This document shows, piece by piece, positions 737-8,117 of a stretch of 64,000 nt of DNA. Below the pieces are notes generated by a model. That model saw only the letters and a list, made by a program, of their open reading frames with translations. It searched no databases and was not told the DNA's origin. The stretch's first letter is position 1; every line of letters starts with the position of its first letter. Location: NCBI RefSeq assembly GCF_018350175.1, contig NC_058375.1:12090001-12154000 (forward strand), written 5' to 3'. The DNA comes from Felis catus. Lineage: Eukaryota. Position numbers and translations under genes: made by a program.

Positions 737-795
737 CTGCTCTCACTGATGGCCTCCGTCTGCACCTGCACAGTATACAGCTGCCACGAATTATC
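737..795 (-). CDS. ATP13A2: ATP13A2 coding exon 4 (59 bp; DNSWQLYTVQVQTEAISES)
   Basis: ttccag acceptor and gtgagg donor; matches recalled DSSWQLFTVQVQTEAI. Confidence 0.95.
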
Positions 796-1120
796 CTGGA
801 ACACAGAGGTGTGGACTTGGTCCCAGAGGAGACTCCTCCCTTCCCAGGCCCCACCCTGCCCACCCTGCGGCCCCTGCAGGGATCAAGGACGTAGATGATC
901 CTCCTCTCAGGAGCCACCTAACCTGTCCCTTCTACCCACTGCTCAGCCGGGAAAGCTGAGGTCCAGAAAGGACAACCTGTGTAAGGTCCCACAGAGATTC
1001 CGGGGCCGGATCGGGCTGAGAACCCGAGCAGGATCCATCGCCTTCCTCCCCCTGCATCGGACCCTCTCCAGCGCCAGACCCACCCCACCCTCTCCTCTGC
1101 CCCTGCCGGCCGGGACTCAC

Positions 1121-1303
1121 CTCTTTGTCTCTTATTTCGATGACGAGTGTTTCGGCGCGGGCCAGGTTGCAGGGCCGGAGCCGCAGCCGCACCCGCCACA
1201 CCGGCTTCCAGCGGAACAGCAGCAAAGGGACCCCTGCCATCATCCAGACCACGATGTGATAGCCTATGACCCTCCATGGACTGCCACAGTAACCGCTGAG
1301 CCT
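1121..1303 (-). CDS. ATP13A2: ATP13A2 coding exon 3 (183 bp; [34 protein letters not shown]...VIEIRDKE)
   Basis: cgcag acceptor and gtgagt donor; hydrophobic N-terminal segment of a P5B ATPase, seen in ORF 932..1252(-). Confidence 0.96.
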
Positions 1304-1404
1304 CTGCGGAGACGCCGACAGAGAAGGCCGAGGTGGGGGCGGGGCGGGCTAGAGGAGGAGCCGGGGGGTCTGGGGGGCCCACCTGCCCACACCCGCCCAC
1401 GTAC

Positions 1405-1499
1405 CACGGATGAAACTGAGGAGCTGAGGGGATCTACAGATGTCTCTATCGTCAGGGTCCCATAACCGGCGGGCGTGCTGCCCACGAGAGGGCTGCTGT
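1405..1499 (-). CDS. ATP13A2: ATP13A2 coding exon 2 (95 bp; [32 protein letters not shown])
   Basis: cccacag acceptor and gtacgt donor; ORF 1264..1509(-) contains the ATP13A2 N-terminus. Confidence 0.96.
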
Positions 1500-2167
1500 C
1501 TGTGGGCACAAAGGAGAGAGGTCATGGCCGGGGGGGCGGGGCGGGGGGGGGGGCTCCTCCTGCTCCTGTTTCTTTAAACATAACAAGCATTGTCATTTTG
1601 TGGCCCCTACAGAAGCCGCGGCTGTTTCCATGCAGCCGCTGTGGTCAAAAAGGAGCCGAGGTGGCTGTTCTCCCTGACGGTCACGGTTCTGTTTGCCATA
1701 ACTGACCTGCAACATTTTGGGAAAAGACAGTCCCCGCCGTCCCTGCCAACTCTTGGGTACAGAGTCCTTTGCTAAAACTGGCATGTTTCCAGAGGTCAGG
1801 AGAAACGTTCCATGGGTGGGGTCTCGCATATAGTTGTTACCAGAAGGAGCCTTTCGAGAACTCGCCTGCTGAGACCAAGGACCCGTCCGGAGGGGCAGAT
1901 GGGAGCGGGCTGGACACGTGTACTGGAAAAGACCTGTGTGGTGCTTTGGGTCCTTGCCCTGAAAGGCTTAAGGTGTCAGTACCAGCACCAAAGGCAGTCA
2001 AACCTTTCCGTGGCGCTTTCCGTGCGTGGGGATCCTGGGGTCAGGACCGCGACGGAGCACAACCCCCTCAGGACCTGGCTGCCCCCAGGTTTCCTGGCAG
2101 CGTCTGATTCTGAAGACGCTGAAGACGCCAGCTTGTTGCTGATGCCGTGTTCAGAGTGAGGTCTGCT

Positions 2168-4213: not shown

Positions 4214-4242
4214 CACACACACACACACACACACACACACAC
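4214..4242. repeat. (CA)n microsatellite
   Basis: Direct inspection. Confidence 0.95.
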
Positions 4243-4994
4243 AGCCTGGGTGTCTGGCCGGCAACAGAGTCTCAAAGCCGGAAGGGCAGGAGGCCAGGTC
4301 AGCCTTCTTCCCTGGGGTTCACACAGGTCCCAGACCAGGTCTCCTGAGATGGTCCCTTTCACTCTCTGCTCCCAGCCCAGTCCAGCTTGTGAGTGAGGCT
4401 TAGCAGAGCATCACTTCCTTCCCTCCCCAACAGCAGCCTGCAGACGACACACAGCAGGAGGGCCCTCTGCTATCTGGTGTGGCCTGGGGGTGGTGCTCAC
4501 TAGGGTTCCGGGCCTGGAGGAGGGGGGGCAGAGAAGCAGGCATTTGGGGCAAGTGACACAGCCTGGCAAGCTGGGTTCGCAGGTCCTTGGCCACCCAAAA
4601 AGCCACAGTCTTCTCTCGCCCCACTTCCAAAGGGGACAGTCCCAGTTGCTACCAGAACCCCAGCCATCTCTTCTGCCAGACAACGGCTCCCCGAGTGGGG
4701 CAGGGTGGGGAGTTTCTCCTTTAAGGGTGATCTCGGCTGGTCCGAGGTGTAAGGGAAAGAGAGAGCATCTTGGGGTGATAAGGGGTTGACACAGGCCGGG
4801 CATCGTTCCGTGGGCTTTGTACACATTAACTCACTCAATTCCTCACCACAACTCTATGAAGAGGGGACTCCTTTTACCCCTATTTTACAGATTAGGAAAC
4901 TGAGGCCGGGAGGGGTGAAGTAAGTTGCCCAGACGCCACAGAGCCGGTGAGTGGCGGGATCCGGATCCAGGCGGTCTCGCGCAGGGGTCCGTGC

Positions 4995-5232
4995 TTTTTT
5001 TTTTTTTTTTTTTTTTAATTTTTAAGCTTATTCATTTATTTTGAGAGAGACAGAGACAGTGTGAGTAGGGGAAGGGCAGAGAGAGAGAGAAAATCCCAAG
5101 CAGGCTCTGCACTGTCACCACAGAGCCCGATGCGGGGCTCAAACGCATGGAAACGATGCATTTGAACCGATCATGACCCGAGCCGAAACCGGAGAGTCGG
5201 ATGCTCACCCGACTGAGCCACCCAGGCGCCCC
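4995..5232 (-). mobile_element. Can-SINE inserted into an older MIR
   Basis: Poly-T tail on the left and head on the right; flanks agggtccgYgc; MIR core (tttacagat..gaaactgaggc) immediately to the left. Confidence 0.88.
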
Positions 5233-7841
5233 TAGGGTCCGCGCCCTTAACCACTGCCCTACCGTCCTCACGGCTGTCTTCGTCCGAGCCCCTGGCTCCC
5301 TTACAGGCAAGCTGTGTTTTGTGAGGCAAGTACCTTAACCTCTCTGGGCTTCCATCGCCCCTCTCTGGGAGCATAACCCTGAGCAGCTGGCACATGACGA
5401 AGCGAGAGTAGCCGCCACCCAGGGGTGTCTAAAGTTCCTGAAGCGTGGCCAGTACACGTGGCAGAGGCTGGCTTCCCTGCCACGGAAGGGCTCTGCCCTA
5501 TTTCTCAGGCTCCCCTCTACTTTCCCATCACCCCGTCTGAAACCCACAGTGTCCCCTGCTCCCCGGTGCACACTCAACAGCCTCTCCGGGCTAACTGCTC
5601 GGGATGGGGAAGAAGCCTGCGGCACGCCGGGCCACCCAGAGCGGGTCGCTTCGCTGATCTGGTTTCATCCTGCAACCATCCTGCCATTTACCCCACTTAA
5701 CAGGTGCGAAGGCTGAGTCCTGGGGAGGCACTTTGCCCACCGACTTGTCCCAGCTGGAAAGGATCTGTCTCGCTCCCCCGTCCTCTCTGTCCGCCTCAGC
5801 CACACCCACTGGCAGCCATCACAGCATCAGGCCTGCACGGGCGTCCCCCTCCGGCTCACAGTGCCTGGCACGAGGCTGGGACTCTGGAACCGTTTACTGA
5901 ATGAACGAACGGCCGAGGCACGCCTGCACGTCTCGCTGACATGACAGCACCGGCCCCTGCCTCCGGGCCAGTCAGCTGCCAGGTGCAGAAGTACGGGCCT
6001 CGTCTTGAAGGGCCCTGCCAGAGATCACCCTGTGCCACCCTCGTTTGCTCGCTTCCCCCAGGCCCCAAACACCGTTCCCTCTGGGCAGTTCTTCCTGGTG
6101 CCATCACACACCCCTCCTTTCAGGACGGGATGCTCCCCCAGTCAACCTCGGGAGGAAGGAAGGAAAGAAAGAGGGGCTTGGAGGAGGAAGTCAGATCTAT
6201 GGAAAAGTCCAGCCTAGAAAACTCTGGTCTTCCAGCAAGATCAAGGCTAGGGCACTCTCTCCCTCCAGCAGGACACTTGTCAAGACACTGGCAAGTGCCT
6301 GTTGATCTCCTGTCACGTCTCAGCTCCCCAGGAATGGCACAGGAGGATCAGGGCAGTATCTGATCTCTTTCAGTATCACTAGCTCAGGCTGGCCCAGAGC
6401 GGTCTGTGCGGTGTGGGATGAGAATACTTTTCAGGATGATTCGGTTGCTCTTCTGAATAACAGTGACTGAGGGGCAATTATCATCTCATTTTAGAGTAGG
6501 GAAAACTGCGGAACAAAGCTTCAAGATGCCTCGCCCAGAGACCTACAGCTCGAAAGGGCAGAATTCCTCTTAGCTCATCCTCGCAGCCGCACCGTGAAAG
6601 CGATGGATTTGGATCCCATTTAAAACGAGGCACAGAGAGGCTGATGAATATGTCCACAGTCACACAGTTATGGGTGGTCAAGACTAGACTTGAACCCAGC
6701 CTGACTCTGCAGCCCTGGGGCAATGCCACCAGCACTCCAGAGTGAAGGGGCTGCAAAGCCATCTGAGAACCTCTCGTTTCCTGCGGAAGCCCCAGCTTCC
6801 TGCTGGTGACCTGGCAGTGGCCCAGGGCACCAGCACTGCCTCCTCCTGCACTGTGCTTCCCCCGTGGCCAGAAGCTCCTCTCCTCTGCCAGGCTAGGGGG
6901 GAGAGGAACAGCCTGCTAGTAGTAATCCGATCTTTGGGTCTGGTGTTCGGAGGGTATCTTTCCTCAGCCTTCCCCCTTCCTCACCCCCCCCCCCCCCCCC
7001 CGTGCACTCCCAGCTTCCGGTGGGGTGGCAGCAGTGGTTGGGGAGAGAGGTGGGAGGTGGGGAGGGAGAGCCCAGAACTGAGCCTTCTGCGACTGTACAG
7101 CATGCTCGACCTTTGGTGGGCCCTCTGCTGAGGCCTGAGTGACTGACTTGGAGATGAGACCTCCCCCCTCCCGGAGAAGAGCGGCCCCTTCTCAGCAGGT
7201 GGGATTTAATTTATACTCAGAAAAGGGTGGGCTTGGGACACGCGGTCTGGGAAGGGTCACAGGCAGGGTGTGGTCCTCGGACCCGGGGTGTTGACAGGCT
7301 TCCTCTGGAGGCCTGAGGCAGGAGTGGCATTTTGTGTCCAGGGCACTCTGACCCAGGGACTCGGGAGCCTGGCGTCTCCAACCCCATTCATTCATTCATT
7401 CTTCATTCATCCAAGAGGAGTAAGCACCCAGAGGCCCCGGATGCGGCGGCGTCCACGCATCTTCCCCATACCTGCGGCCTTTTCCCCCGCCCTGGACATC
7501 CGTCACTGAGGGAGGGAGTCCAGTGGGAGTGGGGCATCTCCCCGCGCCCCTTCCCCGCGGGCCGCCAATCACCCTCGTGCACAGCGCCCAGGGCTGCTGG
7601 AAAGCAGGGAGGCGACGGTTCCGCGCGGCGCCATCCCCGGGCTCCTGGCCTCTCTGGGAAGGGTCCCCGCGCCGACTCCCCCAGGAGGGGGCCGGGATGG
7701 GTGCGGGCATGCCTCCGGAGGTCGTTCCCCTGGCCTGCGAGCCTGCGGTGGGGGTGTCGCGCCACGGCAGGCGCGACGACAGGAGGCCCAGGAGGCCCGG
7801 GGACCGCGCCCTGTTCGGGGAGGCCCCAGCCGCGGACTCAC

Positions 7842-7851
7842 CTGCGCTCAT
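7842..7851 (-). CDS. ATP13A2: ATP13A2 coding exon 1 (ATGAGCGCAG; MSA plus first base of D), lysosomal P5B-type polyamine-transporting ATPase (PARK9)
   Basis: ATG inside the CpG island followed by a gtgagt donor; joins exon 2 in frame to give MSADSSPLVG. Confidence 0.93.
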
Positions 7852-8117
7852 GCCGGCTCCTCGCGCTCATCGCCGGCCCCGGCGCTGCGGCCCGTGGCCC
7901 GGGCCCGGGCGTCGCGATGCCCCGCGGCGGGGGCGCGAGGCAGGAGGCGGGAGGCGGCGGGGGGTGGGGTGCGGGGCAGAAGTCCGGTGGCGCGAGGTGG
8001 TCCGAGGCACCTGCACGGGAGCCGGCTGCCGGCGCGGCTGGGACGGTGCCGCAGTCGGGGTGTGAGCGCAGCCAAGCCCCGCCCGGCCCACTGCGGCCCC
8101 ACGTCCGCCCCGCGCGC

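Follow-up and report, generated by a model that had tools for sequence, protein, structure and literature searches.

Translation of ATP13A2 (PARK9), a polyamine transporter linked to Parkinson's disease, may be contested at its very beginning: in Felis catus, a second ATG lies directly upstream of the start codon. Is this upstream start part of a conserved element acting on ATP13A2, or does it reflect base composition and chance? To answer this question, we analyzed a window of 64,000 nt (the whole stretch of DNA under study), in which the gene is read from the minus strand. The upstream ATG (uATG) at 7870 is located 19 nt 5' of the ATP13A2 ATG at 7851 and out of frame with it (19 mod 3 = 1), and the sequence between 8300 and 7842 contains no ATGs on the minus strand other than these two. 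Both carry a purine (G) at -3 and an A, rather than a G, at +4. After splicing, the upstream open reading frame (uORF) comprises 103 codons across exons 1–4 (29+95+183+5 nt) and stops at a TAA at 793–791, at main codons 97/98, with canonical GT/AG signals at all exon boundaries, the junctions having been placed by splice signals and protein homology. The main frame is that of ATP13A2, as its exon 3 part is 100% identical to felid ATP13A2 records and matches 13 PDB ATP13A2 sequences (E 7e-20). Having an out-of-frame AUG 5' of the main start and its stop inside the coding sequence, the uORF has, by its sequence, the form of the AUG-initiated overlapping uORFs (uoORFs), a class of the GENCODE Ribo-seq ORF catalogues with ATF4 uORF2 as its textbook case. 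An upstream overlapping ORF had been put forward in a preliminary description of this DNA, and its start, equivalent contexts, exon segments and stop were all reproduced, yielding an identical peptide. The relevant features are as follows.

7868–7870, minus strand: upstream AUG, from the sequence; shared with mouse P0189, hamster P0170 and meerkat P0063/P0139
7852–7870, minus strand: uORF codons 1–6, the 19 nt not overlapping the main ORF; from mouse comparison and start-context alignment
7849–7851, minus strand: ATP13A2 main AUG, from the sequence; this N-terminus opens 71 of 121 proteins inspected
7842–7870, minus strand: 29 nt of uORF in exon 1, followed by a GT donor; from the sequence
1405–1499, minus strand: 95-nt exon 2, carrying both reading frames; from the sequence, with uORF-frame homologues in 20 clusters
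1304–1404, minus strand: intron 2, 101 nt; stop at codon 60 if retained
1121–1303, minus strand: 183-nt exon 3, carrying both reading frames; from the sequence, with an internal in-frame Met at uORF codon 51
791–793, minus strand: TAA that closes the uORF, starting at the third nucleotide of exon 4 (which starts at 795), with 54 nt to the exon 4/5 junction
7600–8300, no strand: CpG island that surrounds exon 1 and spans the putative promoter and 5' UTR; from the sequence

Viewed in this one genome, the uORF does not rise above chance. The 299 nt upstream hold one ATG where 0.89 are expected. Synonymous resampling gives a probability of 0.21 that the uORF frame shows no stop over 97 codons; calculated from the stop frequency of ATP13A2 itself, with 8 stops in 1005 junctions, the value is 0.46. 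None of 16 earlier stop opportunities is used (P 0.36), and four longer open runs, of 178–248 codons, occur downstream in the same frame. Length was dropped as evidence on account of these values in the GC3-rich ATP13A2, in agreement with the preliminary caution that such frames are often open by chance in GC3-rich genes and that the uATG, not the length, is informative. The evidence comes from conservation.

Across species, the uORF is probably above chance, with start, frame and end point being the same in mouse. The mouse protein UniRef100_A0ABJ3HNS5 ('Uncharacterized protein', 103 aa) is a direct orthologue of the felid uORF product, collinear with it over equal length, sharing start and end, and identical at 83/103 residues, leaving 20 substitutions. 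It already has its own UniProt entry without the ATP13A2 name, which provides a protein name only and no function. Uninterrupted identity is seen in codons 1–6 (6/6 residues), which lie outside the ATP13A2 coding sequence, so that ATP13A2 coding constraint is not the explanation; in the uORF frame of exons 2 and 3, 25/31 and 48/61 residues are identical to mouse. Gene models of meerkat and Chinese hamster start at the same uATG and match 10/10 and 9/10 of the felid exon 1 uORF residues, respectively, so the named species with the uAUG are three (mouse, Chinese hamster and meerkat), human not being among them. That the mouse record and the two gene models begin here bears indirectly on whether the uAUG lies within the transcript. 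A search with exon 3 in the uORF frame returned 10 orthologous records among 13 matches, the count leaving out P0177, P0179 and P0180 (32–45% identity); such homologue searches find open-frame species only, and losses of the frame would stay invisible. The stop itself depends on the use of GAT, a rare synonymous choice in this gene (5 of its 39 Asp codons), ahead of an Asn codon. The mouse ORF shares this end point, third-frame reads of the mammal clusters P0125 and P0065 fix the same T of the stop, and the residue pair at this site is compatible with TAA in all 107 of 107 motif-carrying long proteins (DN 77, DS 29, GS 1). In a drift simulation, the uORF frame was still open in 6–24% of runs, a value that rests on assumed rates without GC3 bias and overstates the surprise. 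The conservation of uAUG and stop, which the preliminary description had listed as a check, was borne out in part, at the level of protein records: the uAUG is present in mouse, hamster and meerkat, and the exon 4 end in mouse. A metagenome scan revealed orthologous DNA in 0 of 599 stretches, and in a second scan the one candidate among 61 stretches (L004), a 13-residue tblastn match, was discarded as chance. Each conserved feature, taken singly, is weak evidence. Judged from sequence, the start, frame and length shared by felid and mouse constitute a conserved element.

A tandem duplication of the start-site 19-mer that predates the divergence of carnivores and rodents is the likely origin of the element. 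In a gapped alignment, the 19 nt of the uORF and the following 19 nt are identical in 16/20 columns (shuffle P 0.003), the best of 612 windows of the island, whereas, aligned without gaps, the two start contexts agree at only 12/19 positions. Against a translational brake, the 19 nt may have been conserved for transcription or for the context of the main AUG.

On balance, we think that this conserved AUG-started uoORF, whose start, frame and end are shared by felid and mouse, is likely to act as a cis brake on ATP13A2 translation. Out-of-frame overlapping uAUGs are known to be repressive, and a purine at -3 makes non-use of an AUG unlikely if it is part of the mRNA. Scanning 40S subunits would reach the uAUG before the main AUG, and ribosomes starting there would cross the ATP13A2 start and 97 codons with no restart at the main AUG, such that ATP13A2 would be made only by subunits leaking past the uAUG. 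Given the equal moderate context of both AUGs, we propose that a sizeable share of ribosomes is diverted. Ribosomes terminating in exon 4, upstream of the later junctions, would in addition leave some new transcripts vulnerable to NMD: the stop lies 54 nt before the next junction, with about 20 exon segments further downstream, which places it beyond the 50–55 nt limit relative to a later junction. Of the leaky scanning and NMD control suggested earlier, the architecture is present for both; among the titles listed for papers that mention both ATP13A2 and UPF1, none concerned NMD of this uORF. ATF4 uORF2 and its class share with ATP13A2 the out-of-frame upstream AUG, the stop within the coding sequence and, as predicted for ATP13A2, the lack of reinitiation at the main AUG. 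In contrast to ATF4, no short AUG uORF exists within 8300–7871, which argues against an ATF4-type delayed reinitiation switch, and the two AUGs of ATP13A2 are just 19 nt apart, with a uORF, predicted from sequence, that spans three junctions. In the accessible portion of a study on Hox mRNAs, conserved inhibitory uORFs are described to sensitise translation to start-codon stringency (PMC8892498). As in these mRNAs, a conserved upstream AUG is present whose context sets the leaky-scanning share, inhibition being a prediction for ATP13A2; different from them, the ATP13A2 AUGs share a moderate context, and a change in stringency is predicted to hit both.

Several other readings have to be weighed against the cis brake. 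The second AUG could be a passenger, left by an old duplication and little used or tolerated, in a gene whose GC3-rich codons seldom produce a stop when read in this frame. This is unlikely in our view: though it would fit the chance-level uORF length and single-genome ATG count, the duplication origin of the second AUG and an ATP13A2 literature in which our search found no title or passage on an overlapping uORF, start, spacing, frame and stop all agree with mouse, as do the six residues outside the coding sequence, and the -3 purine argues against non-use if the AUG is transcribed. A very slim chance is given to the idea that the kept feature is the main-frame TGA created by the uAUG, blocking an N-terminal extension of ATP13A2. 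This stop sits six codons upstream of the ATP13A2 start, and a near-cognate GTG at 8091 (purine at -3, G at +4) opens a 74-codon main-frame ORF ending at 7869; however, the A of the AUG, the conserved frame and the exon 4 stop would be left unexplained, 8091 is possibly upstream of the TSS, and no conservation of the GTG ORF was seen. Slighter still is the prospect of a transporter isoform with an alternative N-terminus, in which intron 2 retention or other splicing joins the uAUG to the ATP13A2 frame. The meerkat, hamster and Apodemus gene models fuse the two frames, and the 101-nt intron 2, if retained, would bring the uAUG into the ATP13A2 frame here, yet the three models use three different joins, as expected of prediction artefacts, and intron 2 length mod 3 varies among records. 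While the intron 2 reading is open in the meerkat models P0063/P0139, it is closed in the felid genome by the stop at codon 60, which shuts retention as an isoform route.

The 103-aa basic product might also be a stable, independently functioning microprotein, one mRNA encoding two proteins, a reading that we regard as improbable to about the same degree as a passenger AUG. In its favor, a mouse record of reference-proteome type carries the ORF as a separate protein and not as ATP13A2, albeit with unstated grounds and source; identity to mouse is 81%, a level that the main frame also shows across these exons; and 11 consecutive residues at the exon 2 end are invariant in 12/12 aligned records, although these records were picked by similarity in the uORF frame and the stretch adjoins the splice donor. 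At main-frame fourfold sites, 9/39 positions differ between felid and mouse, near the assumed neutral 25–33% (P 0.12–0.48), which speaks for an element acting in cis rather than through its peptide, whereas 0/26 non-fourfold determined sites differ. The uORF-frame identity to mouse (77/96) is as high as that of the main frame to other rodents (48/61 and 25/32). Its probability under drift is 0.02–0.0008 at higher assumed rates and 0.10–0.29 at lower ones, and the identity above drift at the higher rates leaves room for peptide selection. Pfam gave no match for the uORF peptide, including that of mouse, the Atlas model was of low confidence (pTM 0.24, pLDDT 0.44), and an Atlas search with the mouse peptide returned nothing usable. 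The gene name ATP13A2 occurs 0 times in six supplement files of PMC10032668, which may not list gene symbols or may be truncated. Lys and Arg account for 20–21 of the 103 residues in the felid and mouse peptides, and the basic C-terminus appears largely set by conserved ATP13A2 codons. Start and frame are likely what is kept, the peptide being probably disordered and a by-product.

Polyamine-tuned uORF control has precedents in AMD1, AZIN1 and yeast HOL1, AZIN1 using a near-cognate uORF with a PPW stall motif and HOL1 a uORF with PS-stop. According to the portion of the source at hand, AMD1, ODC and SSAT carry polyamine-responsive uORFs (PMC8162569). ATP13A2 resembles AMD1, ODC, SSAT, AZIN1 and HOL1 in having an upstream ORF on a polyamine-homeostasis mRNA, and HOL1 also in being a polyamine transporter; its uORF differs in being overlapping, 103 codons long, AUG-started and devoid of these stall motifs. 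Polyamines could accordingly alter uORF elongation, termination or the choice between the matched AUGs, making ATP13A2 output follow supply. ATP13A2 being a polyamine exporter, the fixed stop position, the Lys/Arg content and, in the passages available, the reduced eIF5A function upon loss of worm CATP-6 (PMC13578949) are consistent with such a sensor. PP, PPW and PS-stop are, however, absent from both the felid and mouse peptides, the start is an AUG and not a near-cognate codon, a stall 100 codons downstream would probably reach the main start only via long queues, and the literature passages at hand contained no link between an ATP13A2 uORF and a polyamine response. The polyamine- or eIF5A-tuned brake of the preliminary description thus found no support, and we hold a sensor to be quite improbable. 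The same low expectation applies to the far-reaching version, translational feedback through a uoORF kept since the carnivore-rodent split, with the ribosome share shifting with polyamine or eIF5A status, as a mammalian HOL1 counterpart working via an undescribed motif and a handle for raising ATP13A2; if true, a uAUG-blocking oligonucleotide would be the means to raise ATP13A2 (PARK9) in disease.

With uoORFs being a common class and the mouse product already catalogued, the finding is of moderate surprise. As a cis brake, the conserved uoORF would imply that ATP13A2 output is likely below capacity, limited at the start codon. uAUG-blocking oligonucleotides raise protein as a general principle, as stated in the part of the source available (PMC9804368), and may offer a possible route to more ATP13A2. 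Complementary DNA constructs starting at the main ATG would lack uORF control, and the uORF is a place to seek 5' UTR variants as well as synonymous ATP13A2 variants that alter the second frame.

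On the minus strand between 8300 and 7842, the only ATGs are those at 7870 and 7851, which lie within a CpG island and each carry a G at -3 and an A at +4. The main frame from 7851 is that of ATP13A2: its exon 3 piece is identical to felid ATP13A2 records and matched 13 PDB ATP13A2 sequences (E ~7e-20), and 24 tblastn segments place the remainder of the gene in the neighboring stretch of the genome. The upstream ATG (uAUG) opens a different frame, the upstream ORF (uORF), which comprises four segments with canonical GT/AG ends:

7870-7842, minus strand, exon 1 part of the uORF
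1499-1405, minus strand, exon 2
1303-1121, minus strand, exon 3
from 795, minus strand, exon 4 part, with the TAA stop at 793-791

Joined, these segments yield a 103-residue ORF terminating at TAA 793-791, which reproduces letter for letter the peptide of the preliminary description.

Within one genome, the uORF is unremarkable because both its run length and the ATG count are near chance. ATP13A2 has a GC3 of 0.857 (1147 matched codons), and the corresponding frame downstream contains 8 stops over 1005 junctions, with open runs of 248, 226, 195 and 178 codons. The probability of a 97-codon open run ranged from 0.21 (synonymous resampling) to 0.46 (geometric), bearing out the earlier caution that length is weak evidence, and the 299 nt upstream hold one ATG for 0.89 expected.

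As no orthologous DNA was obtained, the conservation test rests on protein records; the searches recover only records in which the uORF frame is open and similar, so that losses are invisible. Used as query in the uORF frame, the exon 3 piece gave 13 matches, and the 10 that were fetched were all orthologous, two being already known. A cluster from this search contained P0189 (UniRef100_A0ABJ3HNS5), an 'Uncharacterized protein' of 103 aa from Mus musculus that is collinear with the felid uORF, identical at 83/103 positions (3/4 in exon 1, 25/31 in exon 2, 48/61 in exon 3, and 6/6 in the codons preceding the main ATG) and has its last residue at the corresponding position. A carnivore and a rodent therefore have in common the uAUG with its 19-nt offset, the reading frame and the point of termination. 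In addition, ATP13A2 models from meerkat (P0063, P0139) and Chinese hamster (P0170) start in the uORF frame, with 10/10 and 9/10 identical exon 1 residues, respectively. The -19 AUG is thus seen in protein records of three named species. The stop needs a rare synonymous Asp codon (5/39 Asp codons in ATP13A2), and the same stop T is fixed by third-frame exon 4 read-throughs in two mammal clusters (P0125; P0065 plus 7 members). The residue pair at the stop site permits a stop in 107/107 long motif-carrying proteins, which is permissive rather than proof. Judged by sequence, the uORF is real and conserved between carnivores and rodents.

At the end of exon 2 (1437-1405, minus strand), eleven uORF-frame residues are invariant in 12/12 aligned records, which fixes about ten main-frame third positions beside the donor and may reflect either a splicing element or peptide constraint. 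In the meerkat, Chinese hamster and Apodemus models (P0063, P0139, P0170, P0171), three distinct joins around intron 2 (1404-1304, minus strand) connect uORF-frame N-termini with the main frame, likely annotation errors to which the open second frame gave rise.

A gapped alignment of the 20-nt uAUG context with the following 19 nt, which contain the main AUG, agrees in 16/20 columns, a similarity reached in 0.3% of shuffles with the ATG fixed (P 0.003). CpG-island windows away from the start site scored at best 7 vs 11 at the site, and none came close. The uAUG thus likely arose when the start site was duplicated in tandem, prior to the carnivore-rodent split, which would account for the matched contexts of the two AUGs. 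Within the region of the two contexts (7880-7842, minus strand), both AUGs share bases with a TGA read in a different frame.

Further potential starts were noted on the same strand. An ACG with purine at -3 and G at +4 opens a 15-codon third-frame ORF (7895-7848) whose stop overlaps the main AUG, and GTG 8102 and TTG 8075 share its frame and stop; an ORF from GTG 8091 ends at 7869, and ATC 7918 would lengthen the uORF. In exon 2, at ~1463 and mRNA position 66 counted from the uAUG, a third-frame ATG in strong context (G at -3, G at +4) begins an ORF of 3 codons that would catch subunits leaking past both starts. Elsewhere in the window, an ATG at 44719 (minus strand; CpG island 44501-45000) opens an Ala/Arg-rich, presequence-like N-terminus, probably SDHB exon 1 to judge by synteny, and ATP13A2 intron 1 harbors two SINE-like insertions (~5240-4995 and 2350-2170), one with a long A tail, which we take to be of a carnivore family.

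The uORF could be kept either for its peptide or as a cis element. Divergence was scored at the 65/96 overlap sites whose first codon base in mouse follows unequivocally from the residue, dropping 31 ambiguous Leu/Arg/Ser sites. Felid and mouse differed at 9/65 sites, namely 9/39 fourfold main-frame positions and 0/26 others (7 non-degenerate), and the fourfold count is ordinary against an assumed neutral divergence of 25-33% (P 0.12-0.48). Simulation under four assumed drift rates gave P values of 0.29, 0.10, 0.02 and 0.0008 for the uORF-frame identity of 77/96, the frame staying open in 24%, 16%, 11% and 6% of runs, both effects being overstated because GC3 bias was not modeled. Pfam gave no match to the mouse peptide, and its structure was predicted with low confidence. 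Selection likely acts on having the ORF, while selection on the peptide is unproven.

A polyamine- or eIF5A-tuned role, as suggested in the preliminary description, would make the uORF a route of polyamine feedback on PARK9 (ATP13A2). The argument for it draws on what ATP13A2 does and on analogy, and we regard it as very improbable: the known stall motifs of polyamine-sensing uORFs, PP, PPW and PS-stop, are absent from both the felid and mouse peptides, setting the ATP13A2 uORF apart from those systems. ODC, AMD1 and SSAT carry polyamine-linked uORFs (PMC8162569), and a link has been described from worm CATP-6 to eIF5A and to no-go decay, NMD remaining intact (PMC13578949); the passages retrieved from these papers make no mention of an ATP13A2 uORF.

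UniProt already lists the mouse product, as an uncharacterised protein, and its separate name suggests deliberate annotation of the overlapping ORF. Searches of non-subscription papers on ATP13A2 and upstream or alternative ORFs returned no title on the uORF, and a text search of six supplement files of PMC10032668 gave no occurrence of 'ATP13A2'. Within the literature searched, the uORF is thus catalogued as a nameless mouse protein and functionally unstudied.

In its sequence features, the uORF resembles and qualifies as an upstream overlapping ORF. According to established scanning rules, subunits starting at the uAUG would cross the main start out of frame, with no reinitiation there, and ATP13A2 would be made through leaky scanning past the uAUG. 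Between the stop and the exon 4/5 junction there are 54 nt, with ~20 exon segments beyond, and this position ahead of later junctions means that transcripts whose first round of translation starts at the uAUG may be subject to NMD. Of the brake or NMD control proposed earlier, the layout stands, with an out-of-frame uAUG and an exon 4 stop before junctions, while its operation is predicted. On balance, and with moderate confidence, the best explanation is a conserved upstream overlapping ORF that would act as a brake on ATP13A2 translation.
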